DNA from: a virus
Lineage: Duplodnaviria > Caudoviricetes
Virus record (IMG/VR): IMGVR_UViG_3300032265_002598
Coordinates: 32,001 to 96,000 of that record
Reading direction: 5' to 3' (one strand)
DNA: 64,000 bases
Position 1 is the first letter of the stretch, and every line of letters starts with the position of its first letter. Under the pieces are notes generated by a model, which had not been told where the DNA came from, did not search any database, and saw nothing but the letters and a program-made list of their open reading frames with translations. The translations under genes were made by a program, and so were the position numbers. Below, one piece after another: positions 3,437 to 64,000 of the stretch.

Positions 3437-3673
3437 TCAACCAGTGACAGTAGTATCGGACGATTCTGATGTTGTCACCACACGATTTTTACTAGGACGA
3501 CCCCTTGGTTTCTTTAGTGCCAGCTTTCGTCTTTGTCTACGAACCATTGCTGTTGTAATATTTTGACCAGTCATTTGACTCAATTTGACCCCCAAAACTT
3601 CATCACATAACAATGTATGATTATTCTGAATAAACTCTGTTTCACTAGATGACCACTTTTTATATGTTGCCAT
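3437..3673 (-). CDS. Small DNA-binding protein (Myb/HTH-like plus AT-hook-like PRGRP)
   Basis: KKWSSSETEFI...MVRRQRRKLALKKPRGRP. Confidence 0.65.
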   Translation of the reverse strand: MATYKKWSSSETEFIQNNHTLLCDEVLGVKLSQMTGQNITTAMVRRQRRKLALKKPRGRPSKNRVVTTSESSDTTVTG

Positions 3674-46038: not shown

Positions 46039-46572
46039 ATGGCCAACCCTTTTGAAGCTTTGATATCTCCAGAATTTAAAACGCTGTATAATCAAGCAAT
46101 TGATGCAATATTGGCTAATACTGCGCTCTCCGTTCCTTGCATTATATCCTATGGATCTTCTAATAACTCATTATGTAATAATTGTTTATATGATCCTATG
46201 TCTCAAAGATCTTTACATAAATATAATGGAACTGGTCCGGTAGCTTTTGCTGATAGTAGTATTTGTCCAGTTTGTAATGGATATGGATTGATTGATAAAG
46301 CTAAGGAAGAAACTATTTACATGGCAGTTCTTTTTGATAGTAAATACTGGTTTAATTGGTCAACCAAACCAGATGCTATTAATATATCAGATGGTATGGT
46401 ACAGACAATATGCCCGATAGCATTATTGCCAAAAATAAAAAATGCTCAATATATTACAATTGATAAAAATATAGAAAATTATGGTGGTTATACATATGTC
46501 ACTGCTGGAGATCCTCAACCTTGTGGTTTAGGAGAGAATAGATACATTGTTACTATGTGGTCAAGAGCATGA
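46039..46572 (+). CDS. Putative head-closure/stopper protein with zinc-binding Cys motifs
   Basis: CNNC, CPVCNG; position before the neck/tail genes. Confidence 0.55.
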   Translation: MANPFEALISPEFKTLYNQAIDAILANTALSVPCIISYGSSNNSLCNNCLYDPMSQRSLHKYNGTGPVAFADSSICPVCNGYGLIDKAKEETIYMAVLFDSKYWFNWSTKPDAINISDGMVQTICPIALLPKIKNAQYITIDKNIENYGGYTYVTAGDPQPCGLGENRYIVTMWSRA

Positions 46573-47213
46573 GAATAACAGCAAAAATACTAGAGTCTGA
46601 CTCATATATTAGAAATCAGATACTAACCAGTATTAAAGAACATATGGAGCAGGCTTTTAAAAAAGCCGTACCTGCTCTATCTAAATCTATACCACAAATA
46701 GTTTATAAGGTAATAGTAGGAGAACCAGAATATCAATCTTTATTATCTGGTAAATTAAAGTACGAATTCGGCATACCTTCATCTGCTCAAAAGGTAAATG
46801 ACATTGTTGATATATGGACTAAAAATATTACTATCAATGCCACTCCAATAACCATGTCATCCTCTGGTTTGAGAGGTGGATTTAACATCAATATGATTAA
46901 AGATAATTATGAAGATGTACTAACTAGTGACTCAGCTTTAGTCACAGACAGCACTAGCCAAGCTGTACTTCCATGGTTAGAGTGGCTATTATTATATGGA
47001 GATAAAATTATTGTTAGAAACTATGAGGTGGTAATTGGTCCTAGTCCATATTCAAGAACTGGATTAGCTATTATGAAACCATCTAAAAAGAATTGGAGAG
47101 TTCCACCAGAATTTGCTGGTACAAAAAATAGCAATTGGATTACTAGAGCATTAGAAAAATTAGATGAATCCATACCCGATCTTATTCAAAAAGAAATTGA
47201 GAACCAGATATGA
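46569..47213 (+). CDS. Putative neck/tail-completion protein
   Basis: ATGA overlap; LPWLEWLL..G, WRVPPEFAGT..NWITRA. Confidence 0.55.
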   Translation: MRITAKILESDSYIRNQILTSIKEHMEQAFKKAVPALSKSIPQIVYKVIVGEPEYQSLLSGKLKYEFGIPSSAQKVNDIVDIWTKNITINATPITMSSSGLRGGFNINMIKDNYEDVLTSDSALVTDSTSQAVLPWLEWLLLYGDKIIVRNYEVVIGPSPYSRTGLAIMKPSKKNWRVPPEFAGTKNSNWITRALEKLDESIPDLIQKEIENQI

Positions 47214-48172
47214 GTTGTGAAAATTATACTAAATTTAATAATGTTACTAAAATAGGAGATAATTATTTACTTAGTCAATTAGAAGAAAACCTTAAAGCTT
47301 TTTTAGATTGGGGTTTCTTAAATATTGGTGGATTTATTAATGTAAAAATTCCTACTAGTGGTTTATATGGTGGCACTTTTCATGAACTAAAAACATCAGA
47401 TCAAGCTGGTTTTACAAAAGGACAAGTTTGGCAAACGCCAAAAAAAGAATGGGTATGGGAAACGGGAGTGGTATATAATAATACTCAACCAAAAAATATT
47501 AGTAGTATTAAAGTAAATAATGTAGATTATCCAGCACCAACTGGTAGTGGTTCTATATCATACCATATTAATTATCCTCTTGGACAAGTAGTATTTGATA
47601 AACCATTGCAAGCAAATGCATCTGTTAGTATGGAGTATGCTTATAGATGGTGTCAAGTATATAAAAGTACAACAGATCCTTATTGGACAGAATTACAAGG
47701 TGCTACATATGATCCTACGCCAGCCATAGGACAAAGAGATAAAGGATATTATCAATTATCTTCTAATCATAGGATACAAATGCCATGTATAGTCATAGAA
47801 CCCATAGCTTCTAGTTCTTCTAAAGCTTGGCAAATTGGTGGAACAGATTTTATAATTTCTCAAGATATACTATTACATGTATTTGCAGAAAATGCTCAGG
47901 ATCAAAATAAAATAACAGATATTCTTAGATTACAAAAAGAAAAAACCATTTGGTTATATGATGTAAATAAAGTGGTCAATAGTGGAGTAAATCCATTAAA
48001 CTATCAAGGATCTTTAAATAATAATGGTAAAATTTATTGTGATCTAGCTACAAATCCGACATATCAATGGCGAAGATGTTTTTTTAAAGACATAGTTATA
48101 ACTGATATGGAAAGTCGAAATAAAAATTTATATTGGTGTACAATAAGATTAACGACCGAAGTTATCATTTAG
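47210..48172 (+). CDS. Putative tail terminator
   Basis: Directly before the tube gene; QMPCIVIE..SQDILLHVFAE. Confidence 0.55.
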   Translation: MSCENYTKFNNVTKIGDNYLLSQLEENLKAFLDWGFLNIGGFINVKIPTSGLYGGTFHELKTSDQAGFTKGQVWQTPKKEWVWETGVVYNNTQPKNISSIKVNNVDYPAPTGSGSISYHINYPLGQVVFDKPLQANASVSMEYAYRWCQVYKSTTDPYWTELQGATYDPTPAIGQRDKGYYQLSSNHRIQMPCIVIEPIASSSSKAWQIGGTDFIISQDILLHVFAENAQDQNKITDILRLQKEKTIWLYDVNKVVNSGVNPLNYQGSLNNNGKIYCDLATNPTYQWRRCFFKDIVITDMESRNKNLYWCTIRLTTEVII

Positions 48173-48194
48173 CCAAATTTAATGGAGACATCTC

Positions 48195-49292
48195 ATGGCC
48201 AACCGTATTTATTATGCCTGCCAATCTGTTCAAATTAACGGACCAAGTGGTACATTATCTGGCAAAAATCCAGCATACGACACCATACAAGGTTTACAAA
48301 GTGTTGGTATGAATACCAACTTTAATCTAGAGCCAGTTTATCAAATGGGTCAGATTCAACTATATGATAACTATGAAGAAATTCCAGAAGTTGAAATCAC
48401 TCTTAGCAAGGTTCTTGATGGTTATCCCACAATTTACTCAATGGCTATGGGCACAGGCACACTAGCTAATTTGGCTAATAATCGTTGTGGTGTAAGAATG
48501 CAGCTATTCCCTGATACTCAAACAGTAGCTACTGGAACACCATTAGCTTCAGTTGAATGTGCTCCAGCTTACGTTTCTTCAGTAAGCTACAAGTTTCCAA
48601 CAGAAGGCAACTTTACAGAGGACGTTACACTAGTATCTAATGATAAGTATTGGGCTACTGGTACTTTAAGTAATACAGATGCTGTACTAGTTACTGAAAG
48701 TCCAAATCCAGATGTTGGCATTTTACGCAGAGGTTTATGGAGCAAGAACAGTGTTCTTCCCAATTCAGGTATTGGCTCAACTATTTCTGGTATTTATTCA
48801 TCTAATAGTGGTGGTATTCCTTCTGGTTCCAAAATTAATAACGTTACTGTTAGCATGAATCTTGGTCGTGAACAGATTCGTGAACTTGGTAGTAGAACCC
48901 CCTATTATCGTTATATCAAATTCCCTGTTGAAATTACAACAGAAATTGAAGTAACAGCTATTGGTGGTGATATGGTTGGTGTTTATGGATCAAGTAATGC
49001 AACTTGCAGTAATCCTAAAGCACTAACTAATAAACAAATTATTATTAGATTGTGCGATGGTACTACTCTTGATCTTGGTAGCAAGAACAAGCTAACCAGC
49101 GTTAATTTCACCGGTGGTGATACTGGCGGCTCAAATGCAACAATCACCTATAGCTATACTACTTATAGTGAGTTCACTTATACTGGACCAACAGGAACTA
49201 CAGGCTATCAATCTCCTGGTTCAGGGCTTGCCTATAATGATCCAAGTGGCGTAGTAGAAAGTGGTCTACCAGTTGCAGGCGTAGATTATTAA
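48195..49292 (+). CDS. Major tail (tube) protein
   Basis: GLQSVGMNTNFNLEPVYQMGQ..VEITLSK; NLGREQIRELG..KFPVEITTEIEV; position. Confidence 0.75.
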   Translation: MANRIYYACQSVQINGPSGTLSGKNPAYDTIQGLQSVGMNTNFNLEPVYQMGQIQLYDNYEEIPEVEITLSKVLDGYPTIYSMAMGTGTLANLANNRCGVRMQLFPDTQTVATGTPLASVECAPAYVSSVSYKFPTEGNFTEDVTLVSNDKYWATGTLSNTDAVLVTESPNPDVGILRRGLWSKNSVLPNSGIGSTISGIYSSNSGGIPSGSKINNVTVSMNLGREQIRELGSRTPYYRYIKFPVEITTEIEVTAIGGDMVGVYGSSNATCSNPKALTNKQIIIRLCDGTTLDLGSKNKLTSVNFTGGDTGGSNATITYSYTTYSEFTYTGPTGTTGYQSPGSGLAYNDPSGVVESGLPVAGVDY

Positions 49293-49330
49293 TAGTTAAT
49301 TTAACATAAGACACAGGTTCGAGGACTAAT

Positions 49331-49465
49331 ATGGAAGATATTTTTTCAGTAATAGGTAAGCTTTATTTAGAGCTACTACAAAGTCAAAAAGTAATAGAAA
49401 GTCTGCAAAAAAAACTAGACGAAATGTCTAATTTGCAGACTTCTGTTATTTCTACAGATAACTAA
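49331..49465 (+). CDS. Small coiled-coil protein (44 aa, MEDIFSVIGKLYLELL...)
   Basis: GAGGA RBS; hand-translated. Confidence 0.65.
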   Translation: MEDIFSVIGKLYLELLQSQKVIESLQKKLDEMSNLQTSVISTDN

Positions 49466-49467
49466 AT

Positions 49468-50514
49468 GTGAATGAAACTAGGAAATATGAAATACTAGTT
49501 CATAGGATATTGTCAGGAAAGCAAATTTTTTCTCATAATAACAATACTTATGAGCTTAGGAAACCCTCTTTATCTTTAAAGATGAAAGCAGACTTATTAT
49601 ATATTTCTGCTTATGAAAATAATATTTATAGTGATTTTATTCTGATGGAAGATATTGATGAGCTATTATTTGAGACAAATATTATTAGCAGAGATCATAA
49701 AAAAATCTTAGCTAAGATAGAAAAAAGTTTAGATAATCAAAAAATCAGTCTTTATAAATCATATTATGATAATACTCAAAAAAATAAAATCAAACAAAAA
49801 ATAAAAAACACTAGAGAAGATATTAATAAATTTTACCAAGAGCAACATAGTTTAGATTATCTAACCCTAGAACATTATTGTGATAATATTAAGAATGAAT
49901 TCATTATTACAAATTCTTTATATCACTGTGACTCTGATAAATTAGTTTTTGATTATAATATTCCTATATCATTTAATCTTTTTAATAGTATCATGTCTAT
50001 TATTTCTCATAATGTTATTGATGTTTCCACATACAAAGCAATAGCTCGTAGCGATTATTGGAAAAATTATTGGAATAATAATAAAACAAATATATTAGAT
50101 GAACCAGTTAAAGAATGGTCAGAAGAACAAAAAAGTTTGATTAATATTTCTTGTATGTATGATAAAATACATGAACATCCAGAGTGTCCTAAAGATGATA
50201 TTATAGATGATGATGATGCTCTTGATGGATGGATGTTAGTTCAAAGACAAGAAAATGAGAAACAAAAAAAGGAAAAAGGTGTAGATAGTATGTTGAGTGG
50301 CAAGATAAGGGATTCTGCGGAAGTATTTTTGATGGCTGGAAATAGAGAACAAGCACAGGATATATTTAGTCTTAACTCGGAACAAGGATTACGAACAATA
50401 CAAGATAAAATGAACATGGTCATATCTAGTGATGTTCCAGTACGAGATGCAGAATTACCGGATGTAAAAGCTAGGATATTTAATCAATTAAAGGAACAAC
50501 AGAAACGAGGTTAG
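49468..50514 (+). CDS. Putative tail assembly chaperone
   Basis: Between tube and tape measure; HEHPECP..IIDDDDALDGW. Confidence 0.55.
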   Translation: MNETRKYEILVHRILSGKQIFSHNNNTYELRKPSLSLKMKADLLYISAYENNIYSDFILMEDIDELLFETNIISRDHKKILAKIEKSLDNQKISLYKSYYDNTQKNKIKQKIKNTREDINKFYQEQHSLDYLTLEHYCDNIKNEFIITNSLYHCDSDKLVFDYNIPISFNLFNSIMSIISHNVIDVSTYKAIARSDYWKNYWNNNKTNILDEPVKEWSEEQKSLINISCMYDKIHEHPECPKDDIIDDDDALDGWMLVQRQENEKQKKEKGVDSMLSGKIRDSAEVFLMAGNREQAQDIFSLNSEQGLRTIQDKMNMVISSDVPVRDAELPDVKARIFNQLKEQQKRG

Positions 50515-50515
50515 T

Positions 50516-50830
50516 ATGTACGATCCAGATAGACTTAAATTTTATATGGAAAGAAGAATTCAAACAACAATGATTGGAGCATTAGCTCGTATTGAAGAAA
50601 ACCTTGGATTTTTATGGGGACAACATAAAGATGGTGAGCTTACAAAAGAAGAAGAAGAATTTGCTGACATTTGGGATTTTACCAGAAATCAAATTTTGAA
50701 TAATGGTAATAATCAAATTAGACAAATTAAAGAAGACTTTTATAGATATGGTGGTATATTTAAATCAAGATATCACTATAATTTCCCAGTAACAAAAAAT
50801 CAAGATAATCAAAACTCTCAGGAAGGATAA
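50516..50830 (+). CDS. Hypothetical protein
   Basis: 104 aa ORF in the tail operon. Confidence 0.75.
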   Translation: MYDPDRLKFYMERRIQTTMIGALARIEENLGFLWGQHKDGELTKEEEEFADIWDFTRNQILNNGNNQIRQIKEDFYRYGGIFKSRYHYNFPVTKNQDNQNSQEG

Positions 50831-50833
50831 ATA

Positions 50834-51727
50834 ATGAAAACTGAAAATTTTAGTGTTGTAGTTGATGGTGTCGAAAAGCATTTTACTGTTAGATCACCTT
50901 CTTTAAATGATCAAAGAGAAGGACAGAAAGCATACAATCAAGCTTTTACAGACGCTATCAAGTCTAAATCTGTTGTTAGGGCCAAGATGGACGATCTCCT
51001 TGAAGAACAAGGTTTGTGGAATCCGGAAAAGCAAAGAAAATTTGCCGATTTGCAACAAGAATTAATAGACGGAGAAAAGAAACTTGCCAAAGGTGGTTTC
51101 GGTCTTAAAGATGCTAAAGGACTGGCTTTAAGAATGAAAGAAATTAGATCAGAAATTAGAGATCTAATTAGTGTTCGTACCTCTTTAGATAACCATAGTG
51201 CAGAAGGTCAAGCTGATAATGCTAGATTTAATTATTTAGTCTCGGCTTGTGTGGTGTATAAAGATACAAATGATCCCTATTTTCGCAGTTTAGAAGAGTA
51301 CTTAAATAAGGCCGACGATCCTGTTGCCTTGATGGGTGCTCAGAAATTGGCCAGTATGATTTATGGTTTAGATAATAATTTTGAAAAGAATTTACCTGAA
51401 AATAAATTCCTTCAAAAGTATAAATTTGTTGATGAGAAACTAAGACTGGTAGACAAGAGAGGTCGGTTGGTAGATGCTGATGGTCGATTAATTGACGAAC
51501 AAGGTCGATTTATTGATGAGGAAGGCAACTACATTGATAAGAATGGTAATAGAGTCGACAGAGATGGTGATTATGTTGTCGATGCTGAACCATTTTTAGA
51601 TGAAGAAGGAAAACCTGTAGTTTTAGAACAAGACACCAAACCCGAAGTGACTAAAGATGAGACAACTACAACTACAGTATCAGAACCAGTCCCAGCAGAA
51701 ACCCCAGTACCCCCTGCAACTACTTGA
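50834..51727 (+). CDS. Putative tail assembly chaperone with 7-aa DxxG repeats
   Basis: VDKRGRL VDADGRL IDEQGRF IDEEGNY IDKNGNR VDRDGDY. Confidence 0.55.
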   Translation: MKTENFSVVVDGVEKHFTVRSPSLNDQREGQKAYNQAFTDAIKSKSVVRAKMDDLLEEQGLWNPEKQRKFADLQQELIDGEKKLAKGGFGLKDAKGLALRMKEIRSEIRDLISVRTSLDNHSAEGQADNARFNYLVSACVVYKDTNDPYFRSLEEYLNKADDPVALMGAQKLASMIYGLDNNFEKNLPENKFLQKYKFVDEKLRLVDKRGRLVDADGRLIDEQGRFIDEEGNYIDKNGNRVDRDGDYVVDAEPFLDEEGKPVVLEQDTKPEVTKDETTTTTVSEPVPAETPVPPATT

Positions 51728-51808: not shown

Positions 51809-54800
51809 ATGGCTAAAGGATTTAATTTAACAGCACAAATTAATTTACAGGGACCATCTAATATTAATGTTATTGTATCTAACATTAAAAAACAATTAGG
51901 CACCATTTCAGCTAATGTTAATTTAAAGATAGACCCAGCATCGGCTAAAACAGTTGCCAGCTTAAATTCTTCTTTAAATCAACTTAACTTAACCCTTAAA
52001 GCGACGGCATCTTCTGCAACAAATGCTGCTGATGCAGTTAGGGATTTACTATCAGCTATGAATGGTGTTGCATCTGTAAAGTTGCCCAGTCAAGCAGCAC
52101 AAGTATCTTCATCTCTTAATAATGTAGCAGCTTCTTCTGCTAGCGCCCAAAAAGCACTATCTGCTTCAAGAACAGAGATAGAAGAATTTGGTAATCAAGC
52201 TGGTTTGGCAGTAAGAAGATTTGCTGCATTCAGCACTGTAACATCAGTAATATATGGATTAACAGGAGCAATTAGAGGTGGAATATCCGATTTTATTGAT
52301 TTTGATAAACAATTAACTAGAATCGCTCAGGTTACTGGTGAAAGTAAAGACGGATTAGGTAGACTAAAAGGAACCATAACAGAATTATCTACAGGTCTTG
52401 GTGTTACAGCTAAAGACTTAGCTGGCGTATCAGTTACACTATCTCAGGCTGGTCTTACCGCTAGAGATACTGAAAAAGCATTAAGAGCATTGGCTCTTAG
52501 CGCCCTAACAGCATCATTTGATGATATGAATCAGACGGTAGAAGGTTCTATTGCTTTGATGAGACAGTTCAAGATCGGATCTAATGAATTAGAAGCGGCT
52601 CTAGGATCTATCAATGCTGTATCAGCAAAGTTTGCAGTAGAATCTAGTGATATTATTGCTGCTATTCAGCGTACTGGTGGTGTGTTTGCCGCAGCTAGTA
52701 GAGGAGTTAGTGAAGGTAAAGATGCTCTCAATGAATTTATTGCTGTCTTTACTAGCGTTAGAGCAACAACCAGAGAAAGTGCTGAAACAATTGCTACTGG
52801 TTTAAGAACTATCTTTACCAGACTCCAAAGAGGAGACACTATTGAGGCCCTTAAAGAATATGGTGTTAATCTTACAGATTTAGATGGCAAATTCGTTGGT
52901 GCTTATAAAGCTGTTCAGTTATTAGCTGAAGGTTTAGGACAGATCGACCCTAGAGACCTTAAATTCTCCAAGATTGTTGAAGAGCTTGGTGGTTTTAGAC
53001 AGATTGGTAAGGTTATTCCATTAATCCAAGAGTTCACAACGGCACAACAAGCACTACAAGTTGCTCAAGCTGGACAAGGCTCATTAGCTTCTGATGCTGC
53101 TAAAGGACAATTAGCATTAGCAGTACAAATTAGTAAAACAAAACAAGAATTTTTATCTTTGATTCGTAGTATTGGAGATACTGATAGTTTTCAAAAAATG
53201 GTTACTGTTGGTCTTAGTTTAGCTAGTGCTTTAATTAAGGTAGCCGACGCTGCTAAAGGCATTATCCCATTAATAGGATTATTTGCCGCATTCAAGGGTG
53301 CTTCAGCTATACGACAGTTTAGTGCTGGATTTGGAACTGGCTTTGGTGGAGGAGCAGCTAAACAAAATAATAGACCATTAGGTTTTGCTACCGGTGGTTT
53401 AGTTCCCGGACAAGGTAATTCTGATAGTGTATCAGCAAGACTAACTCCTGGTGAGTTTGTTGTGAGAAAAAGTGCTGTTAAAGCTATTGGCTCAAATAAT
53501 CTACATAGAATGAATAGATATACAACTGGTGGAATTGTTAATCAAATAGGTGGTGTTCCAGGAAAAACAATAGTTCAAAATAGCAAAAATCAATTAGTAG
53601 GATTTAGTCCAAAAGACACCTATTCTATATCAGATGGTTCTGAAAATCTTATTATTAAATATGATAGTAAAAAACAAAATTATAGAGCTAGAGGTAAAAT
53701 ACTTGATCCTTCTTTAGTTAATCGTCTTTTTAAAAACAATTTTCAATCTACTGTGTCTTGGGAAGAAATTGTTGCCAAAAGCTATAATGGTAGATTAGTA
53801 AATGGAAAAAATGATAAATTCCCAATAGATATTATTGCTGGAAATACTTTAATAGATGCTAAATTTAGGCCAGAAGAATCATATAAGCCTATGGATGCTT
53901 TAGGAAAAGCATTAAGTTATCGTCTATATAAAGCATCGGGAGGTAGATACAACTATGAAAATAATGGACAACAAAAACTTAAACTTAATAGTTTAGTTAG
54001 AAATACTCTTACAGAAAATCAAGATAATATTAAAGATTCTGGTCAGATAAAATTTGTTTATCCAGAATTTCAAGATATTCCCACAGACTTACCCGGAATT
54101 AAGTCTAATGTAACAAAACGACAAGCTCAATTATCTAGCAAAAGAACAAGTTCAATGCAGAGGGGGTATGCTCAAAGTTCAATTGACATATTCGGTGGAT
54201 CTACTTTCAGTGGAAATAAAACAGATATTAATACTTTAAGCCCCTACGATAAAAAAAGTAGATTGTTTGGAGGAGGATCAGTTCGTAAATTTGAAAATGC
54301 GGGCTTAGTTACTCCAACAGCAGGAACAGCAGCTAATGCTAGTGAAATATTAAAAGTACTTACTTTGCCAGGAGCAATGGCAGCTAGTGGAGCAAGTGCT
54401 GGGGATATACTGAAAATACTAAAGAAAAAAAATGTACTTACTCCAAAAGAACAAGATATCAAAAATAAAATTTTAGGAGCATATACTAAAAAAACTTCTG
54501 GTATTAGATTAGCAGAGAATGCAGATATACAGAAGGCAATTACCGAAGGTCTTTTATTTGGTGCTGCTGGATTTAAAGGTAGAGCTTTTCCTATCACACC
54601 AAGAATGGATATTCCAGGATTAAAGAATGCAGTTAAGGTTAGAATTACTAGTGGTGTTTTAGATTCAGAGATGTCTAAAAAACTATTAAAGAAAATGACA
54701 GTGGGACTTAATAGTGTCGCTAATAAAACTTCAAGAAATATCATGATTAAAGATATCTTGAAACAAACTGGTCCATTATATGCTGATTTTGATAGAACAT

Positions 54801-57800
54801 TAGCCTTCGGTGCTGATAAAATTTTAGGAGATCCAACAAAGCCAAAATATAGTGAATTCTCTGATAGAAGCAAAGTTGCTGGGGCTTTAAGAACAGCTAA
54901 TCTTAGCATTTTAGGTAAAGCTATTGCTAGTACAGTAAGAAAAACCCCAGAATTTGCTAATAACCTAAATGTAATTTCTGCTAGACCACAATCAACAATG
55001 GATTTAATAGCCGGATGGTTAGCTAGCAAGGGCATTCCAATTCCATTAAATAGAATAAAGGGTGTTGGTGGGCCACAAGTTACTCCAGAACAGATTGCTA
55101 GTTTAAAGGCTGACTTGATGAATCCAGAGGGGGCCTTTGTTGACGATGATCCTAGAAATATTGCAGAATCAGAAAGAAGAGGAATCCGATCATATCTATA
55201 TAAAAAACAAAATGTTGGACCAACAGGAAGAAAAAAGCTTGGAGAAGCAAATGCTAAGGGTTATTTAGCCGAAAGAGTAATTCATGAGCTGGGCGGTCCA
55301 ATAGCTAATAAAGCTGCGACTAACTATGGTATCGACTTCCCAGATGGTTTAAAAAGTGCCGCGAAATACTTTGGTATTCCATCAGATATTCCAACAGACG
55401 CTAAACTTACTTTAAATGGTCCTGCTGAACTGAAGAGCCAGATTGGCAATTATCTCAAGGTGAGAGGATATGCTGGTGGTGGTTCTGTTACAGCAGACTA
55501 TTATAGCTTAGAAAAAAGTAGTGGATTAAAAAGTTTTGAATTTGATAATGCTGTAAAGTTTGCTAAAACTATGAATTATAGCATGTCAGAATTTCAAACA
55601 TATCTAAAGAAACTGCAAGTAGAAAAACAGAATAAATCTGGTGTTAAGACAGATAAAGATGCTCTAAGAAAATCTTTAATATCTGGAACCCCAACTGCTA
55701 CATCTAGACAAATGTCATTAGCAGAATCACTAAAAGGTCCAGCAGATGCTGGCTATAGACCAATATTAACAGAAGCTCAAAGAGTTGCTGCTGCTCGTGC
55801 AGATGTGAGAAATGCAACAAGAGGATTTGCTTCTGGTGGACTTGTTCCCGGAGTTGGTAATCAGGATACTGTTCCTGCTAATCTCAATGTGGGTGACTTT
55901 GTTATTCGTAAAAAAGCAGTATCTACTATTGGTGCTAGTAATCTAAGTTCATTAAATAAAAGAGCTAGTGGCGGAGAAATAAGCAACACCGTCCCTGCAC
56001 TATTAACTCCTGGTGAGTTTGTTATAAATAGAAAAACTGCTAGTAGCATAGGAACAGCAACACTTAATAGATTAAACTATGCAGATAAGGCTTCTAAATT
56101 TAATAATGGTGGCCCAGTAGGAACTGTTCAAGAGTTTGCAATAGGTGGAGCTGTACAAAGACTATTCTTTGGTGGTCCAAGCTTACCAGCTAAACCCTCT
56201 AATCCTACAGAGGGTAATGTTCAAATTTCTACTACTGTTGGTGACCAGCTTAGAGGTATGGTAACCGCTTTAAATGACTTAGGAATATCTTCATCTAAAA
56301 CAGCAGAGATTATTAAAAAGGGTGGACAGATCAGTTATCAAGCTGCTATAAAAGCTTATTCTGCTGATATCCAAAAAATGAGATTAAATGGTGCATCTGC
56401 GATACAAGTTGCAGACGCAGAGAGAAAGCTTAGAGATATTAGAGCAGACGCAGCAAAGAATATCGAAACTAGAAAAAAACTCTCTGGAGTTGGTGCAGAT
56501 CAATTACAGAACATAGATACCTCAGCACAGTTTGAGAAAGAAAGATTAACAAATCAAAAGAGAAATAGTTTAAGAAAAAAAGGAATTACTGGAGAAGCAG
56601 CGGATAAAGTATTAGAAGGTAGTGCTGCTAATATTGAAAAAATAGCATATCAAAGTGCAGCAAAATCACAAGGTGTTGATCTTAAAGGTATGGGTCTAAA
56701 TGGTCAGGATATGCAAAAATATATCCAACGATCAATGATGGATGCAAAAACTTTACAGCAAATGAATGCTCAATATTTACAAACTAGAAAGAAAGATTTA
56801 GAAGCAGTAGGACATAGTGCAGCAGAAGCTCATAAAATAGCTCAAAAAGAAATCAAAGAAAGAGAAGCCATACTTAGAGATGTTGCCAAGTCTCGTGGAA
56901 TGGCAGATCCTACAGGGAAGGGATCGTCTGAAAAACTCAGCCAAAGAATGATGATGGCCGGTTTTATGCTTCCTATGATAGGTAGTGCAGCATCTAGTCT
57001 TATTAATCCTGAAAGTAGTGCAGCGAGTGCTGCAACATCTGCTGGTATTCAAGGAGTAACTAATACAGTTGGTATGGGATTAGGCACAATGAGTATGATA
57101 CCTCTTGAAAAACTAGGTAAATTTGGTGGAATACTAGGTATGGCAGCAGTTGCAGCAGCAGCTGTTGGTCAAGCTATGATAGATGCTCGTAATGCTACTA
57201 TAGAGTTTGAGAAAAAGATGGGTCAGAATAAAGCAGAAAAAGCTTTAGAAGAAGTAGGTAAAACTTTTGAAAAACTTGAAAAAGATATAAAGAATATAAA
57301 TCTTCAGAAAATTATTATAACTAAACTAGCAGAAGCTAGTACAAATATCAAAAGTAGTGTAGAAGCTGATGTTAAAAGAGCTAAAGCATATTGGACTAAT
57401 TTATTAGATGCTTATTTCGGTGGAGCAGGAACATCGCAAGGAAATAGGGAAGCAGCAGAAAGAAGTAAAATTTTAGAAAAAGGAGGAGTAGGTAAATATT
57501 TTCAAGCTACAGGTTTTGGTCAAGCTATGATGGGTAATGTTTCTGGTGCTGATGCAGCAGCTAGTGCGTCAAGATCTGCACAAATAAGAGGTTATGCTCC
57601 AGAAACAGCACAGCAAAATGCCAAAATATTTGCTGATACTGCTAGCCAAATTAATCGTCTTATAGAACAAAAATTTAAAGGCGGAGAAAGCTTAGAAAGT
57701 ATTTTAACAAGCATTACAGATGCTTCACAACCAGAATTTCAACAGTTTGCAGAAGTCTTAGCTAAATCTAATGCTGTTATAGGACAACAAATTTTGTATA

Positions 57801-60800
57801 TAGAGTCTGATATACATCTTAAAGCCGATCAGAAAAAAGCACAAATAGAAGCTATACAAGCTACCTACGCTGAAGCAGAGGCCAGAAGAATCTATGGTGT
57901 TGTTGCTAGACAAAAAGAAATAAAATCTTTAGAACAATCGACTGGCTTATTTAGTCGTAGTCTTGAAAGAATGTATCAGAATATGGAACAGTCCATAAAT
58001 AGGACTATCTTTACTTTAGACAAAATGAGTAAAGAATTAGACTTAGTAGTTTCTTCTTTTAAGGGTGAAGCTACAGTAGGCCAAGGCTCATTAGACAGTA
58101 TTAATATGCTACAGAATCCTCGTGCTTATTCTAAGAATGATAGAGAATCTGCTCGTGATCAAGCTTCTAGTTTCTTTTCTGGTAATAGAGATCTAGTTAA
58201 AGGATTATTAAATGCTGGGGATAATTTAGAACAAGTTATTATGACCACTTTAAGTAATACTTTTAGAGATAATCCAGCAGCTAACAACGAACAAATTGGT
58301 ATTGCTATAGAAAGAAATGTTAAAGATCAACTAGCTAATTTATCTTTACCATCTGATGTTGGAGATAAGCTTGCTGCTGAAGTTCAAAAGGCTTTGGGAG
58401 ATTTAAGAAAAGAAGATAATAGTAAAGTTGATTTTGCTCAGTTAGCAGAAAAAATACCTCAATTATCAAAAGTTATTGAGAGTGCAAAAAGAGCACAAGA
58501 AGTAGCAATAAAAGCATTAGAAAATTGGCAAAATGCATTAAATAACTACTCTACTAGAACTAATCAGCTTGTTGATTTGCAAGTAGACACTAATAATAGA
58601 CTGAGAAAGTCAACTCAAATTTTAGCTGATAGTCAAATAGATTTAGCAAAATCTCTTGGTCAAGAAATAGGAGTATCTGATACTAGAAGAGTAGCAGAAT
58701 CTAAAACAGGACAACTAACTGGTGGATTAATAAGTCCAAAAGATATAACTGATAATATCTTAAATCTTGAAGGAAATAGAAGAGCACAAGAAACTGGATC
58801 TAATATTGCTAGAAATAGAGGAGCTAGTGGAGTAGATGATTTTATGAATATGCAGAAGGGTCTAAAAGACACAAATACTGCATTAAGAGAAAACTATGAA
58901 GCTCTCAAAAACTTAGCAGATAATTCAGATGTAGCATCAGCTGCTTTAGGTAAAATTCAAGAAGCTCAACAAAAAAATCAGGGACGAGTTAGTTTTATCG
59001 AAAAATTAGTCACCAGTACACCAGATGAAATGGATGGTTTAGGTAAAGCACTCGGTAGACTACAAACTAATATGAATGGTCAAGTTAATACTATTCAACG
59101 ATCACAAGGAGCACAGCAGGCTTATTATGAAGCTTTACAAAATGGAGCTTCTGGCTTTGAGGCTATGAGAGCTGCTCAAACTGCATTTGCTAATGAGAGA
59201 AAAGAAACGCTAGGTGCTCTTAATGATATTATGCCTTTCTTAGGAAATAATAAACAAAGCAATAATATTAAAGCTAATGTATTAGAAGGTATGTTAAAAG
59301 AATCTGGTCAGGGTGTTTCTCCAATAATGCAACAGGTATTAACTACCCTCAGAAATCCACAAGCTGATCCAGAAACCCAAGCAGCTATGGCTCAGTATCA
59401 ACAGGCCACCAACTTACAATCAGAAGCTAATAGACAATTAGCTATGTTAAATACTAATTTAGCTGGTCAAATAGCAGACGCTTCTGCAAAAGCTTTGAAA
59501 GACGCATTAACTGGAACAGCACTAACTTTCCAAAATGCAGAATTAACAAATATTCGAGACGATGTGGCTATTATCAAGAATTTAATAGGAGCAGGAACGA
59601 CTACACCGACAACCAAAGCTTCTGGAGGTGTTATATATGCTGCTGCTGGTATGGGTATTGATTTTTCTCCAAAGGGTACTGATACTGTTCCAGCAATGTT
59701 GACCCCCGGAGAATTTGTGGTTAATAGAGCAGCTACCCAGAGAAATCTCCCACTATTACGTTCTATCAATAGTCAAAAACATAGTAGTGGTGGTCCTGTT
59801 AGATATTATGCTGGTGGTGGATATGTTAGTAGTATTATGAAGGATCAAACAGATCTTAGGGGAGAAGGACTTAAAGTAACAGATAAAAACTATTTAGATC
59901 CAGATAGTGAAGATTTTAAAAATCTAGTTAGTGATAAATCTCCAACAGTATTTAGTGGATGGAAAAACTATACTAGAAGTCAGGCATCTGGAGAAGGAAG
60001 AAAAGAAGGAGATAACATATATGCTCCTGCTCGTTGGTGGTATGGAATAGCTGGGATGGGTCCTGGAGAAATTGCTTTTAATAACAGAGGGGCTTTATTA
60101 GCGGGTGCTGCTCCAAAAATTGAAGTAACTCCTGATGGATATTTCCAATATACCGCTACTCAACCAACTACAGTAGATCCTATTAATCAAGTTCAACCTA
60201 TGGGTCTTTTGATGTCTAAGGGTGTTATAGGAACAAGACCTATTCGACAAGATCAAATAATAAAATATAAAGAGAAAATTTTAGCAATTAAAAGAAATAT
60301 GGGGGCTCAGGCTTGGGGAGATGACCCATCAGATTTTGATATAGGATCACTTGAAGATATCAATGGTGTGCAAGGGAAAAGTGGTGGGCCAGGTAAAGAG
60401 TACGATCCTAATATCAGTATTGGTAAAAATATTGGTATAATTATTTCTCCCAATAAAAATAGGCCAATAATTACTCCAGTATTTCCTTCTGAAGAAACTA
60501 CAGATATACAAAAAGTTTGGTTGGAAATGACTACAGCTGCTAGTCTTGTTCCAACAGGATATTATGGAACTATAGTTTCTCCACACGCAGTTGAGACAGG
60601 AGGGACGTTAAGAACAGACAACAGCGAAACAGTTCCGGGTGCTAATAATAGTAACGCTGGTCAAGATATTAGAGATAAGGGATTAAAAATTGATTTACTT
60701 AGTACCCCAAGAACTAGCGTTGTTCCAAACGCAGCTATGGCTACAGTAGAAGCTAATTGGGTTAGAGCAAAAGCAGATATTGATGCTAAAATTAATTCTC

Positions 60801-63800
60801 AGAGAATAAATACAACATTTTATAAGGATACTTTAGCTTCTGTTGAAGCTGATAATTTTAAATTTGTAAGAACAAAGGTTAACAATAGACTAGATCAATT
60901 ACAAAAACAACTACAAAATCTATACGAAAACCGTAGTTTGGTAGAAGATATTGGCCCATCTAAAGAGTTTCTTGATTTAGAGCCTTTAAATGCTCCAGAT
61001 CCTATTGTAGATTTGCATGTTTTATCAGCTACTAAAAATAATGAATTACGACAAAAAATAAAAGAACTTCAAGCTATTTCTCCTACTATTCGTGAAGATA
61101 AAGGTTGGAGAGGATTAAATGTTGGTACTATAGGAGCAGCATTTGGTGAAAAATGGATGGACGGTAATGCTATAGATATTCAAGATGAAATGGCAGCTGG
61201 ACCCTTAAAAGAATTTCCTTGGATTGCTAATCTTGATCCAACCATTCTTTTAGCTAATTTAGCTGCTGATATAAGAAGGAAACAAGAAGACTTAGCTAGT
61301 GGTAAAGAGTATGGATTTAATGTTAGTCAAATTACTCATTCTGTTAATGAAAAATTACCAGCACCACTAGATCAATATTCTCTAAAGCATACCGAACAAT
61401 ATTTAAAATATACTGGTCCTCTTTGGAATCCTGATGATCCTAATGCTGATCCTTCTGGTTTCTTGACAGACAATCCTCTTAAAGATTACTTTGTTGTTAA
61501 ACCCTCTCCAGCTAAAGAAGACATGTTTCAATATGCCGGAGAGGCATTTAAAAATCAAAGAAATTTTGCTAGTAAGAATAAACCATTTGATCTTTCTGAT
61601 TTAATCTCTAAATTACAGCCAGCACAAACTCAAACTATAGCAGATTATATTAAGAATCCTACTGACCCACAATTAACCACTGATCTTAAGAATATTGCTG
61701 TTGGAGTTAATCCTAGTTTAATAACAGCTAAAACTGTCGGTGTTAGTAAACCAATTGGATTAGAAGGTTTTGATTTATTTTCTCAAGAAGATAATACTCC
61801 AATTAATCTTAATATTGGTAGTTATTTAACTCATGCAATTGAAGAGTTAGCACAAGAACAAAAAAGAAAAGCTTTAGGAGTAACTGGAGAAATAGATAAT
61901 GCTAAGGGGCTTAGTATTGGTATTGCAGATACTGATAAACAAAAGGCTTCTGTTAATCTAACTCGTGGAGCATTAAATGTTTTTGGTAGATCAAAGATTC
62001 CGGGATTTGCTAATGGATGGTTAGCCAGATATATTGGTAGAATGCCAAGCATATTAGGTATGGCTAAAAATAATAATATTGTAAAATCTGGTACTTCATA
62101 TATAGCCAATGTTTTCAATGAGGCTGGTGCTTATGCTAGTAAATTATTTCAAATGGCTCGTAATCCTCAACAATATAATGCTCTCAAAGAAGCATATGTG
62201 ATGATCTCTGGGGCTACCAGCGCTTTTAATGGATTATCCAATGGAGATACAAGGTTCTTAAAACTACTACAAGACCAAGGAGACTATTCAGCTCTATTTA
62301 GATCTTTAGGAGCAAGTTCTAGTTTCCAAAAAGCAGCAAATAATGAACTAACAGCAGACTATCAAGCTCAATTGGGTCAGGAACTTAAGGGATCAAAGAT
62401 TAGAAAAGTCGGTGCTGATGGTTCACTAAGTTACGCTGATTTCAATAATTCTGTACCAAAAACTTATCAAGACTTAGTAGATACAGCACTTAATCCATAT
62501 AATGAATTTACTAGTCCTTCTATTCGTAAGGGATTGATTAATACATTAATTGCTGATATTTCTAATGGTAAAGATAGTTTAGGAATGCCATTCTTTGATA
62601 AAAGAACTTTGGACTATATTAATAATAATCTTAGAACTCTACAGTCTTGGTACGGTGGTGATGGTAATGCATGGCCCGGACAAGACTCTTTTTATGACGA
62701 AACTTTAGATGCTAAGATCAGAACTGATAGTGTTATAAATGCTCTAAATAATAATGCTGCTGGTGGATTATTAGATCAGGCTAATTTAGCTAATACACAA
62801 TTGGGTGTTGCTACTAAATTTGGTAACTTGCCAAGTGCTCAATGGTTTGAGGCCAGAAAGATTGCACAACCTCAATTTAGAGCTACTGGCGGCATGATCT
62901 ATGCTTCTGAAGGCCAGATGATTAATTTTCAGCCCCGTGGCACAGATACCGTTCCAGCAATGTTAACTCCCGGCGAATTTGTTGTCAATAGACAAGCCAC
63001 CCAAAAGAACCTCCCATTGCTACAATCTATTAATAATGGTAATCATTATTCTAAGGGTGGTCCTGTTAATTATCTATCAGATGGTGGAGAAGCTGCCCCA
63101 TTTAATGCTATAACTGGCAATAGAGTCAAAGAAAAACCAGAAGATAAAGATTCTCCACTAACTAAATATAAAATCAGCTCAGTACTTTATCCCTATGTTA
63201 GTTATCCATTTGATGAGAGAGGATATTCTCAGGATTTACCTCCAGAACTAAAAATGCTTAATACTTTAGGGGGTTATGGCGGTGGAATAGGATATACAAA
63301 TATTTTCTTTGATACTGATTTAGCTAAAAGTTTGCGGTCTATCAGAAGTAATAAAAATAATCAGTATGCAACTAGTACAGCAGTAAATAACAGTTCTGCT
63401 GAGTTTATTAAACAGTTTAAATTTAGAGATATTGATAATAATGATAAATTAACTGGCTTTGATTTTTCTAGCTTTTTATCTGATAGTGATAATATTTTAG
63501 GTTTAATAGATCCAGATTTAGGTGATGGATTTGCTCCTAAAAATCTAATAGCATGGAAAAAAGCAGAAGATAGAGTCAAGGCCAGATCATCTGCTAAGGC
63601 TGTTATTGCTAATTTAACACCAGACTTAGAAAATATTAAAGCTGTTATACAAGATCAACATCCAGTAGATGGTTCAAATAATACTAATGATCGTAATTCT
63701 TATGGGGCTCAAGGTCAAGCTGCAATAGCAATGAGGATGTTGATTTACAATGTAATAGAAACATGGAAAAAAGATTCTATAGAAAGTATAGAGGGTCTTG

Positions 63801-64000
63801 GATCAGATAATGCTCAAGTCAATTCTCAACAAGTAGCAGAAGATATCTATAAAGGTAATAAAACGCCTTTGACGAAAAAATTAGTAGATTGGTTAGATAA
63901 AAAAGAAGGAGCTAAAACTTTAGTTGAAAAAGCTAAAGAATTATTTCCTGGTAGATCCCCTGATGATGCTCCAAATGACAAATTTTTAGCATCAGATTTT
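51809..64000 (+). CDS. Giant tape measure protein (TP901-type core) with embedded cargo domains; 3'-truncated, >=4064 aa
   Basis: ATG 51809 (MAKGFNLTAQINLQGP). No in-frame stop seen in the ~7 kb translated by hand, and the ORF track lists no closed ORF in this frame. TP901-like FDKQLTRIAQVTG..ELSTGLGV..LSQAG; hydrophobic stretches ~53190-53340 and ~56940-57180. Confidence 0.9.
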   Translation, partial: MAKGFNLTAQINLQGPSNINVIVSNIKKQLGTISANVNLKIDPASAKTVASLNSSLNQLNLTLKATASSATNAADAVRDLLSAMNGVASVKLPSQAAQVSSSLNNVAASSASAQKALSASRTEIEEFGNQAGLAVRRFAAFSTVTSVIYGLTGAIRGGISDFIDFDKQLTRIAQVTGESKDGLGRLKGTITELSTGLGVTAKDLAGVSVTLSQAGLTARDTEKALRALALSALTASFDDMNQTVEGSIALMRQFKIGSNELEAALGSINAVSAKFAVESSDIIAAIQRTGGVFAAASRGVSEGKDALNEFIAVFTSVRATTRESAETIATGLRTIFTRLQRGDTIEALKEYGVNLTDLDGKFVGAYKAVQLLAEGLGQIDPRDLKFSKIVEELGGFRQIGKVIPLIQEFTTAQQALQVAQAGQGSLASDAAKGQLALAVQISKTKQEFLSLIRSIGDTDSFQKMVTVGLSLASALIKVADAAKGIIPLIGLFAAFKGASAIRQFSAGFGTGFGGGAAKQNNRPLGFATGGLVPGQGNSDSVSARLTPGEFVVRKSAVKAIGSNNLHRMNRYTTGGIVNQIGGVPGKTIVQNSKNQLVGFSPKDTYSISDGSENLIIKYDSKKQNYRARGKILDPSLVNRLFKNNFQSTVSWEEIVAKSYNGRLVNGKNDKFPIDIIAGNTLIDAKFRPEESYKPMDALGKALSYRLYKASGGRYNYENNGQQKLKLNSLVRNTLTENQDNIKDSGQIKFVYPEFQDIPTDLPGIKSNVTKRQAQLSSKRTSSMQRGYAQSSIDIFGGSTFSGNKTDINTLSPYDKKSRLFGGGSVRKFENAGLVTPTAGTAANASEILKVLTLPGAMAASGASAGDILKILKKKNVLTPKEQDIKNKILGAYTKKTSGIRLAENADIQKAITEGLLFGAAGFKGRAFPITPRMDIPGLKNAVKVRITSGVLDSEMSKKLLKKMTVGLNSVANKTSRNIMIKDILKQTGPLYADFDRTLAFGADKILGDPTKPKYSEFSDRSKVAGALRTANLSILGKAIASTVRKTPEFANNLNVISARPQSTMDLIAGWLASKGIPIPLNRIKGVGGPQVTPEQIASLKADLMNPEGAFVDDDPRNIAESERRGIRSYLYKKQNVGPTGRKKLGEANAKGYLAERVIHELGGPIANKAATNYGIDFPDGLKSAAKYFGIPSDIPTDAKLTLNGPAELKSQIGNYLKVRGYAGGGSVTADYYSLEKSSGLKSFEFDNAVKFAKTMNYSMSEFQTYLKKLQVEKQNKSGVKTDKDALRKSLISGTPTATSRQMSLAESLKGPADAGYRPILTEAQRVAAARADVRNATRGFASGGLVPGVGNQDTVPANLNVGDFVIRKKAVSTIGASNLSSLNKRASGGEISNTVPALLTPGEFVINRKTASSIGTATLNRLNYADKASKFNNGGPVGTVQEFAIGGAVQRLFFGGPSLPAKPSNPTEGNVQISTTVGDQLRGMVTALNDLGISSSKTAEIIKKGGQISYQAAIKAYSADIQKMRLNGASAIQVADAERKLRDIRADAAKNIETRKKLSGVGADQLQNIDTSAQFEKERLTNQKRNSLRKKGITGEAADKVLEGSAANIEKIAYQSAAKSQGVDLKGMGLNGQDMQKYIQRSMMDAKTLQQMNAQYLQTRKKDLEAVGHSAAEAHKIAQKEIKEREAILRDVAKSRGMADPTGKGSSEKLSQRMMMAGFMLPMIGSAASSLINPESSAASAATSAGIQGVTNTVGMGLGTMSMIPLEKLGKFGGILGMAAVAAAAVGQAMIDARNATIEFEKKMGQNKAEKALEEVGKTFEKLEKDIKNINLQKIIITKLAEASTNIKSSVEADVKRAKAYWTNLLDAYFGGAGTSQGNREAAERSKILEKGGVGKYFQATGFGQAMMGNVSGADAAASASRSAQIRGYAPETAQQNAKIFADTASQINRLIEQKFKGGESLESILTSITDASQPEFQQFAEVLAKSNAVIGQQILYIESDIHLKADQKKAQIEAIQATYAEAEARRIYGVVARQKEIKSLEQSTGLFSRSLERMYQNMEQSINRTIFTLDKMSKELDLVVSSFKGEATVGQGSLDSINMLQNPRAYSKNDRESARDQASSFFSGNRDLVKGLLNAGDNLEQVIMTTLSNTFRDNPAANNEQIGIAIERNVKDQLANLSLPSDVGDKLAAEVQKALGDLRKEDNSKVDFAQLAEKIPQLSKVIESAKRAQEVAIKALENWQNALNNYSTRTNQLVDLQVDTNNRLRKSTQILADSQIDLAKSLGQEIGVSDTRRVAESKTGQLTGGLISPKDITDNILNLEGNRRAQETGSNIARNRGASGVDDFMNMQKGLKDTNTALRENYEALKNLADNSDVASAALGKIQEAQQKNQGRVSFIEKLVTSTPDEMDGLGKALGRLQTNMNGQVNTIQRSQGAQQAYYEALQNGASGFEAMRAAQTAFANERKETLGALNDIMPFLGNNKQSNNIKANVLEGMLKESGQGVSPIMQQVLTTLRNPQADPETQAAMAQYQQATNLQSEANRQLAMLNTNLAGQIADASAKALKDALTGTALTFQNAELTNIRDDVAIIKNLIGAGTTTPTTKASGGVIYAAAGMGIDFSPKGTDTVPAMLTPGEFVVNRAATQRNLPLLRSINSQKHSSGGPVRYYAGGGYVSSIMKDQTDLRGEGLKVTDKNYLDPDSEDFKNLVSDKSPTVFSGWKNYTRSQASGEGRKEGDNIYAPARWWYGIAGMGPGEIAFNNRGALLAGAAPKIEVTPDGYFQYTATQPTTVDPINQVQPMGLLMSKGVIGTRPIRQDQIIKYKEKILAIKRNMGAQAWGDDPSDFDIGSLEDINGVQGKSGGPGKEYDPNISIGKNIGIIISPNKNRPIITPVFPSEETTDIQKVWLEMTTAASLVPTGYYGTIVSPHAVETGGTLRTDNSETVPGANNSNAGQDIRDKGLKIDLLSTPRTSVVPNAAMATVEANWVRAKADIDAKINSQRINTTFYKDTLASVEADNFKFVRTKVNNRLDQLQKQLQNLYENRSLVEDIGPSKEFLDLEPLNAPDPIVDLHVLSATKNNELRQKIKELQAISPTIREDKGWRGLNVGTIGAAFGEKWMDGNAIDIQDEMAAGPLKEFPWIANLDPTILLANLAADIRRKQEDLASGKEYGFNVSQITHSVNEKLPAPLDQYSLKHTEQYLKYTGPLWNPDDPNADPSGFLTDNPLKDYFVVKPSPAKEDMFQYAGEAFKNQRNFASKNKPFDLSDLISKLQPAQTQTIADYIKNPTDPQLTTDLKNIAVGVNPSLITAKTVGVSKPIGLEGFDLFSQEDNTPINLNIGSYLTHAIEELAQEQKRKALGVTGEIDNAKGLSIGIADTDKQKASVNLTRGALNVFGRSKIPGFANGWLARYIGRMPSILGMAKNNNIVKSGTSYIANVFNEAGAYASKLFQMARNPQQYNALKEAYVMISGATSAFNGLSNGDTRFLKLLQDQGDYSALFRSLGASSSFQKAANNELTADYQAQLGQELKGSKIRKVGADGSLSYADFNNSVPKTYQDLVDTALNPYNEFTSPSIRKGLINTLIADISNGKDSLGMPFFDKRTLDYINNNLRTLQSWYGGDGNAWPGQDSFYDETLDAKIRTDSVINALNNNAAGGLLDQANLANTQLGVATKFGNLPSAQWFEARKIAQPQFRATGGMIYASEGQMINFQPRGTDTVPAMLTPGEFVVNRQATQKNLPLLQSINNGNHYSKGGPVNYLSDGGEAAPFNAITGNRVKEKPEDKDSPLTKYKISSVLYPYVSYPFDERGYSQDLPPELKMLNTLGGYGGGIGYTNIFFDTDLAKSLRSIRSNKNNQYATSTAVNNSSAEFIKQFKFRDIDNNDKLTGFDFSSFLSDSDNILGLIDPDLGDGFAPKNLIAWKKAEDRVKARSSAKAVIANLTPDLENIKAVIQDQHPVDGSNNTNDRNSYGAQGQAAIAMRMLIYNVIETWKKDSIESIEGLGSDNAQVNSQQVAEDIYKGNKTPLTKKLVDWLDKKEGAKTLVEKAKELFPGRSPDDAPNDKFLASDF

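Follow-up and report, generated by a model that had tools for sequence, protein, structure and literature searches.

A predicted HAD-type phosphatase domain embedded in the giant tail tape measure protein of an uncultured jumbo phage

Introduction

To our knowledge, phage tail tape measure proteins have been regarded as rulers and channel formers, save for those that carry cell wall hydrolases and the single case of the phage P23-45 RNA polymerase. Here, we describe a conserved domain with the predicted fold and active site of the haloacid dehalogenase (HAD) phosphatases, located within the giant tape measure protein of an uncultured virus (Duplodnaviria; Caudoviricetes). The domain was analyzed in a stretch of 64,000 nucleotides that covers positions 32,001 to 96,000 of the IMG/VR record IMGVR_UViG_3300032265_002598 and is referred to below as the window; nucleotide coordinates are those of the window, and features are on its plus strand unless stated otherwise.

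The closest described carrier is gp96 of Thermus phage P23-45, a protein of 5,002 amino acids (aa) whose N-terminal part is a virion RNA polymerase that transcribes the pre-early genes (Nat Commun 2024;15:317, PMC10770324). The authors of that work proposed that the polymerase stays at the pore formed by the tape measure (PMC10770324). The protein described here would resemble gp96 in being a giant tape measure with an N-terminal enzyme that is delivered by the virion, meets its substrate in the cytoplasm, and is active before phage gene expression. The two differ in that gp96 carries a two-barrel RNA polymerase and the present protein a HAD phosphatase domain, and they come from unrelated lineages; moreover, the activity and role of the P23-45 enzyme were shown experimentally, whereas those of the HAD domain are predicted. 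The tape measures of SPbeta (YomI), T5 (Pb2), and mycobacteriophage TM4 likewise carry a catalytic domain used at infection. Those domains cut peptidoglycan, whereas the HAD domain is a predicted phosphomonoesterase. Tape measure-like proteins are also ejected effectors of contractile injection systems (PMC13277306). In the literature searched, a HAD or other phosphatase domain or a phosphomonoesterase within a tape measure was not described, and only unrelated co-mentions were retrieved.

Three groups of phosphatases are the nearest enzymes for comparison. The residue roles in T4 Pnkp (PseT), comprising the nucleophile, the acid/base, the phosphate contacts, and the metal ligand, are established (PMC3592404). 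T4 Pnkp is a soluble early protein with a fused 5'-kinase, whereas the HAD domain has no such kinase and is embedded in a virion tape measure. The second group comprises the class B acid phosphatase AphA (PDB 2B82, 1Z5G) and the class C acid phosphatases; AphA is a secreted periplasmic homotetramer, whereas the HAD domain lies inside a chain of 5,679 aa. Small phage HAD phosphatases and nucleotidases (the T5 5'-deoxynucleotidase family, HAD_SAK_1, NT5C-like, and "PNKP phosphatase domain" proteins) have 150–190 aa, the same size as the tape measure domain; unlike it, they are free cytoplasmic enzymes produced after infection.

Results and Discussion

Identification of the HAD motif set in the tape measure protein

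The giant open reading frame (ORF) that contains the domain starts at 51809 and runs past the window end (51809..64000, +). Translation of 51809–63997 (+) gave a single uninterrupted frame, and in the whole genome the ORF encodes 5,679 aa with its stop at window coordinate 68848. The N-terminal 520 residues form a TP901-type tape measure core: PF10145 (PhageMin_Tail) was matched at aa 189–382 (E value, 9.1e-23; 81.6 bits versus a cut-off of 33.2), and the PHROG tape measure families phrog_28, 4211, 167, and 1533 matched over aa 24–945. On these matches, the 5,679-aa protein is assigned as a TP901-type tail tape measure protein.

The original prediction, made by reading the DNA, had placed a complete set of four HAD phosphatase motifs inside this ORF. 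All four motifs were found in the tape measure frame at the coordinates given there. Motif I, LYADFDRTL, occupies aa 990–998 (54776–54802), with its DxDxT residues D993-F-D995-R-T997 at 54785..54799 and the two Asp codons at 54785 (D993) and 54791 (D995). Motif II, NVISARP, lies at aa 1054–1060 (54968–54988) and includes V-I-S1057-A-R1059-P (54971..54988). The candidate motif III Lys in SLKAD (aa 1098–1102, 55100–55114) is Lys1100 (55106..55108), and motif IV, AFVDDDPRNI (aa 1109–1118, 55133–55162), contains D1112-D1113-D-P-R-N1117 (55142..55159), of which the Asp pair is predicted to bind Mg2+.

The bare motif string alone is no proof of a HAD domain, since a loose pattern of DxDxT, S/T, K, and DD with HAD-like spacing also occurred in 399 of 2000 shuffles (20%) of the 5,679-aa protein. 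When hydrophobic strand residues were required before motifs I, II, and IV, this strict pattern was found once in the real protein (aa 990) and in none of the 2000 shuffles. A chance origin of the four motifs was rejected, with the conservation and the predicted fold described below as the decisive evidence.

Conservation of the catalytic residues in homologous tape measures

A word-indexed search with aa 940–1200 retrieved 54 proteins, and an exhaustive HMMER search with aa 950–1180 against 1.84 billion representatives retrieved 86. The pooled set comprised 122 homologues (54 + 68) with identities down to 27%. Nearly all were proteins of 1.9–7.9 thousand aa that carry PF10145 and are encoded on contigs of up to 248 kb; the remainder were a few fragments and one free-standing protein. 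Within this set, the HAD domain thus occurs almost only within giant tape measures. Relatives of the cassette that holds the domain were found neither in GenBank phages by tblastn nor in 185,579 prokaryote species genomes.

The original prediction depended on the Asp residues being conserved, and the catalytic residues proved essentially invariant in the 122 homologues. D993 and D995 were each kept in 120 of 120 homologues, and position 997 was T in 116 and V in the other four. The canonical form of motif I is DxDx[T/V], in which V is permitted, and an Asp at the +2 position of this motif is the mark of a phosphatase (or mutase). Position 1057 was S or T, followed by A1058-R1059, in all 121 homologues compared. 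K1100 was aligned in 105 of 122 rows and was Lys in every one; the other 17 rows have a Lys in GxxNK, 12–14 residues before the DD of motif IV, and are therefore only misaligned, so that motif III can be considered universal. In motif IV, D1112 was present in 121 of 122 homologues, D1113 in all 122, and N1117 in 106. The consensus strings of the alignment were LDFDRTL, VITAR, IAKLK, and FVDDD.

The conserved unit extends beyond the HAD domain. BLAST coverage of 54 homologues peaked over a cassette at aa 850–1235 (54356..55513), in which mean identity was 0.34–0.54 versus 0.11–0.15 in the adjoining stretches. By segment, mean identity was 0.52 in the HAD core and 0.54 in the segment that follows it, compared with 0.60 in the tape measure core and 0.05–0.37 in the rest of the protein. 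The cassette is bounded by an FGGG box (aa 818–821) and a YAGGG box (aa 1221–1225), both of which fall in the block that separates the first two of nine TPGEFVV-type modules.

The free-standing homologue, P0119 (locus L001 28-516; E value, 3.7e-6), is a protein of 162 aa encoded on a 2.9-kb metagenome contig. It retains the catalytic residues (FDLDDTL, LTARP, NK, and LVDD), and two further genes, encoding 567 and 220 aa, come after its own; neither has a Pfam hit on record. P0119 may be a stand-alone ancestor or a spin-off of the tape measure HAD domain.

Predicted fold and structural neighbors

An AlphaFold2 model of aa 900–1235, built from a 53-sequence alignment, had a mean pLDDT of 86.3 and a pTM of 0.68. 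In the model, the HAD core (aa 977–1139, 54737..55225) contains five parallel β-strands (model residues 91–93, 154–158, 184–186, 210–213, and 228–231) that alternate with helices; a short insert separates β1 from β2. The C-terminal ends of β1 (91–93), β2 (154–158), and β4 (210–213) carry motifs I, II, and IV, respectively, and Lys1100 is on the helix before β4 (194–203). The same placement is seen in HAD enzymes generally. At the site of the squiggle and β-hairpin flap after β1, DSSP assigned single bridge residues only (model 96 and 100–101). The N-terminal flank of the core (aa 900–976, 54506..54736) was modeled as a β-hairpin and a long helix (E17–25, E44–51, and H54–85), and this helix is paired with the N-terminal extension in the alignment to AphA (model range 50–237).

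Structure searches pointed consistently to the HAD superfamily. The named matches of Foldseek against the PDB were all HAD-fold proteins, among them AphA, the T4 Pnkp phosphatase, MDP-1, HisB-N, phosphoserine phosphatase, the HAD domain of Legionella Lem4, and deoxyribonucleotidase-like proteins, and the named top matches among Swiss-Prot models were likewise HADs. In BFVD, which holds predicted viral structures, the matches were dominated by nucleotidases and by phage proteins named "PNKP phosphatase domain". The small phage HADs were the nearest clusters in the ESM Atlas both by structure and by language-model features: the structural search returned viral HAD clusters of 160 aa, including NT5C and HAD_PNKP clusters (TM score, 0.63–0.71; root-mean-square deviation, 2.4–3.5), and the features gave 0.93 to viral Acid_phosphat_B, DUF2608, T5 dNMPase, and HAD_SAK_1 clusters. 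The structural Z score to AphA was 11.6. A Rossmannoid HAD fold, without which the original prediction would not stand, is thus present in the model, and the tape measure protein almost certainly contains a domain of this fold.

The comparison with T4 Pnkp held motif by motif, with D165/D167/T169, S211-G-R213, K258, and D277-D278 of the T4 sequence as the counterparts of motifs I to IV. Structural equivalence to the Pnkp phosphatase domain (PDB 5UJ0, 1LTQ) included the S-x-R of motif II. The two domains differ in the insert between motifs I and II, which has 64 residues in the tape measure HAD versus 46 in T4 Pnkp, and they share no detectable sequence homology. In hhalign, the HAD alignment scored a non-significant probability of 0.65% against T4 PseT, with only motif II aligned.

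Sequence-family searches were negative throughout. Pfam matched only PF10145, and no HAD model, in the whole protein and the excised domain, and PHROGs had no family for aa 940–1200. In the 54 aligned HAD segments, Pfam gave only weak hits to LNS2_PITM1-3 in seven (best E value, 0.011) and one to DUF2608 (E value, 0.19). PDB sequence profile searches with alignments A1 and A3 yielded nothing significant, the sole HAD match being the motif IV stretch of drimenol synthase (E value, 1.5). Six hidden Markov models (HMMs) of HAD families were run on the phage genome alone, namely PNK3P (PF08645), HAD_SAK_1 (PF10307), Acid_phosphat_B (PF03767), DUF2608 (PF11019), HAD_PNKP (PF25109), and LNS2_PITM1-3 (PF24694), and none matched at E ≤ 10. 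Membership in the HAD_SAK or PNK3P families, raised with the original prediction, was therefore not borne out in the phage genome at this threshold. HAD_PNKP and PNK3P likewise had no match in the Pfam scans of the domain and its 54 homologues, and Acid_phosphat_B gave no match despite the structural Z score to AphA. The assignment to the HAD superfamily itself is supported by the conserved DxDxT / S-T / K / DD set and the predicted HAD fold. Since no curated HMM or PDB profile matched, the domain forms a new sequence family of this superfamily; as judged from the model, its fold and active site are those of a HAD, although it lies outside the curated HAD families.

A candidate nuclease-like segment next to the HAD domain

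The HAD core is followed by a conserved segment at aa 1137–1227 (55217..55489), in which a helix with a Glu precedes D1176 (in DFPxG) and T-[D/E]1197-x-K1199. This is the order of helix-Glu, Asp, and (D/E)xK seen in PD-(D/E)xK nucleases. Of 121 homologues, 119 have the D...[D/E]xK arrangement after the HAD domain; the [D/E] position is D in 80 of these and E in the other 39. D1176, D1197, and K1199 are invariant in alignments A1 and A2. The language-model features of the ESM Atlas gave an uninformative value of 0.75 for this segment. The segment is regarded as a candidate PD-(D/E)xK nuclease-like motif beside the HAD domain.

An earlier stretch of the tape measure (53700–54000; aa ~630–730) contains a similar FPIDII...IDAKF string, to which about 22 of the 54 homologues align. 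A Pfam search of aa 560–900, which covers this stretch, returned nothing.

Proposed activity, delivery, and substrate

The predicted fold, the complete set of motifs, their deep conservation, and their location in a tape measure lead us to infer an activity, a route of delivery, a compartment, and a substrate for the domain. Residues ~977–1139 would form a small, essentially capless, Mg2+-dependent phosphomonoesterase, like the T4 Pnkp 3'-phosphatase, AphA, and the small phage nucleotidases. As in other members of the superfamily, D993 would attack the substrate phosphate to form an aspartyl-phosphate, and D995 would give a proton to the leaving group and then activate a water molecule. S1057 and K1100 would bind the phosphate, and D1112 and D1113 the metal. 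On the strength of this complete and conserved active site, the domain is probably a catalytically active HAD phosphatase.

In the usual polarity of tape measures, the N-terminal end is head-proximal and the C-terminal end leaves the tail first. Situated within the N-terminal fifth, the HAD domain would be head-proximal and, as with the P23-45 polymerase, would exit the tail last, adjacent to the DNA. Before infection, the domain would be stored in a non-native state in the 4-nm tail lumen, from which it would be expelled at infection (PMC9022992; PMC10770324). Because the tape measure precedes the DNA into the host envelope, the domain would arrive as a pre-made enzyme, available before any phage gene is expressed. 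Delivery with the tape measure at infection is likely, and so is the combined proposal that an active phosphatase is delivered as part of the tape measure. Since the domain is conserved in more than 120 related giant tape measures, the phage probably brings a ready-made phosphatase along with its DNA.

The cargo of other tape measures in the set bears on the compartment. The homologue P0060 (7,122 aa) contains an ADP-ribosyltransferase exoenzyme domain (PF03496; E value, 1.5e-9) together with two copies of the HAD domain, in stretches at aa ~1160–1270, 2281–2427, and 3490–3636. P0032 and P0060 also had hits below the Pfam cut-off to a cytidyltransferase-associated region (PF16581; E values, 1.8e-05 and 0.0097). 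Since an ADP-ribosyltransferase needs NAD+, the tape measure cargo of at least some relatives appears to be suited to the cytoplasm. Three points, namely the closest viral relatives, the nuclease-like motif fused to the domain, and this cytoplasmic type of cargo, favor a nucleotide or a nucleic acid terminal phosphate as the substrate. The domain would act on it together with the post-HAD segment, where the ejected tape measure reaches the cytoplasm. We put this substrate forward tentatively, as a possibility somewhat short of an even chance.

A more speculative extension is that the HAD domain and the E...D...(D/E)xK segment form a virion-delivered unit for processing nucleic acids or nucleotides at the cytoplasmic mouth of the channel in the first seconds of infection. 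Such a unit could remove terminal phosphates from nucleic acid ends or from nucleotides released by a nuclease. The role suggested with the original prediction, in which an injected phosphatase might heal nucleic acid ends or eliminate nucleotide signals of host defense, is likewise plausible. It would resemble the T4 Pnkp healing of tRNA cleaved by host defense, or the T5 pre-early deoxynucleotidase, except that it would be supplied as a protein. The T5 enzyme is the analogue for a nucleotidase role, and a nucleotidase acting after a nuclease would fit the pairing of the two elements somewhat better than heal-and-seal repair.

Several observations weigh against the proposed phosphatase and its role at infection. 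No sequence model recognizes the domain, and its family placement runs through predicted structure and motifs. The homologues were gathered with the HAD region as the query, so that its conservation is overstated. A folded domain of 160 aa would, as a trimer, be too big for a 4-nm lumen, and it would thus have to travel unfolded or in a metastable state. Regarding repair, a search of the phage genome for partners found no RNA_ligase and, for AAA_33, only a sub-threshold P-loop elsewhere (E value, 0.03); the RNA_lig_T4_1 search was uninformative, as it matched nothing in any control genome. With no polynucleotide kinase or RNA ligase over the cut-off, T4-style heal-and-seal would be left without visible partners. 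In addition, PD-(D/E)xK nucleases leave 3'-OH ends, for which a 3'-phosphatase is not needed.

Alternative roles for the domain

The muralytic domains of other tape measures suggest a different site of action, in which the phosphatase is expelled into the periplasm or cell wall and eases penetration. Its substrates could be lipid A or lipopolysaccharide core phosphates, undecaprenyl (pyro)phosphate, wall-polymer end groups, or periplasmic nucleotides. The structural likeness to the periplasmic AphA would agree with such a role, whereas the Acid_phosphat_B HMM found no match and the viral structural neighbors are cytoplasmic enzymes acting on nucleotides and nucleic acids. Its position in the N-terminal fifth also sets the domain well apart from the C-terminal end, which should be the first to come out, and the ADP-ribosyltransferase of the relative requires cytoplasmic NAD+. 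An envelope-acting phosphatase is thus considered unlikely. If the domain does reach the cytoplasm, it could instead be an effector that dephosphorylates host phospho-Ser/Thr/Tyr, a phospho-Asp signaling protein, or the target of a defense kinase, and so blunts the early response. Capless HADs often act on macromolecular substrates, as do Fcp1/Scp1 and MDP-1, and both MDP-1 and the HAD domain of Lem4, an effector translocated by Legionella, were among the structural matches (Foldseek PDB ranks 17, 18, and 22). However, MDP-1 and Lem4 rank below Pnkp and AphA and are absent among the 50 VIA table entries, the nearest viral clusters are of the nucleotidase, PNKP, and acid phosphatase types, and the nuclease-like motif, which is always fused to the domain, suggests a nucleic acid target. 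The probability of a protein phosphatase effector is accordingly judged to be small.

It is also conceivable that the domain has no catalytic role in infection and serves as a structural or assembly element, such as a plug, an oligomerization knot, or a chaperone-binding module, or that its activity is confined to tail assembly in the producing cell. In favor of this, large insertions are tolerated by tape measures, and the domain would be stored in an unusual state within the 4-nm lumen (PMC9022992). Against this, the nucleophile, the acid/base, the S/T, the Lys, and the metal-binding Asp pair are invariant across 122 proteins with identities down to 27%, and the free-standing 162-aa version retains the same residues. 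This invariance makes a purely structural role unlikely, and the absence of any catalytic role in infection is judged highly improbable. A delivered phosphatase with a nucleotide or nucleic acid substrate is therefore the reading that we retain, at the graded likelihoods given above.

Implications for giant tape measure proteins

Among giant tape measures from uncultured phages of 100–250 kb, more than 120 clusters have kept a phosphatase active site intact despite deep divergence. The domain represents a new HAD family, with aa 977–1139 as its minimal unit, in an unusual carrier for which one analogue of the carrier principle has been published. Provided that the domain is both active and delivered, tails of the siphophage type could inject enzymatic effectors much like contractile injection systems do, and the earliest steps of host takeover or counter-defense could take place without the need of gene expression. 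The giant tape measures of uncultured jumbo phages might then be general carriers of pre-made anti-host enzymes.

Genomic context and additional features

The source genome is a complete viral record of 201,067 bp with direct terminal repeats and a G + C content of 34%. The window contains structural genes, with those for the large terminase, head-decoration, and fibre-like proteins located upstream of the tape measure gene, and further giant ORFs of 1,456, 1,828, and 2,612 aa are located downstream. The closest cultured phages are only about 25% identical, namely Bacillus siphophages for the terminase and SPbeta YomI for the tape measure core. The YomI core shares 23% identity with the N-terminal tape measure core and is a distant relative.

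A second giant ORF in the structural block (28832–41170, +) encodes 4,112 aa, for which Pfam gave no family at E ≤ 0.01. Immediately before the tape measure gene, seven consecutive ORFs of 104–365 aa (46039–51727) had no PHROG match at E ≤ 0.001; tail tube and chaperone genes are expected at this position. An antisense ORF of 263 aa (54244–55035, −) overlaps the HAD region inside the strongly conserved plus-strand frame and shows no sign of being a gene.

Within the tape measure protein, nine modules of the form GG...(D)xVPAxLTPGEFVV...L..N...GG are distributed across the 5,679 aa (53384–63090 and on to 68848). Seven of them, at aa 1396, 2628, 3716, 4870, 5072, 5286, and 5536, fit a strict pattern. 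The modules may be linkers, cleavage sites, or small folds. The family phrog_35029, whose function is not known, matches four stretches of the protein. The sole strongly hydrophobic 19-residue window of the tape measure (Kyte-Doolittle >1.6) lies at aa 1772–1793 (57122–57187), and this stretch, about 640 residues past the HAD domain, is a candidate membrane-inserting segment.

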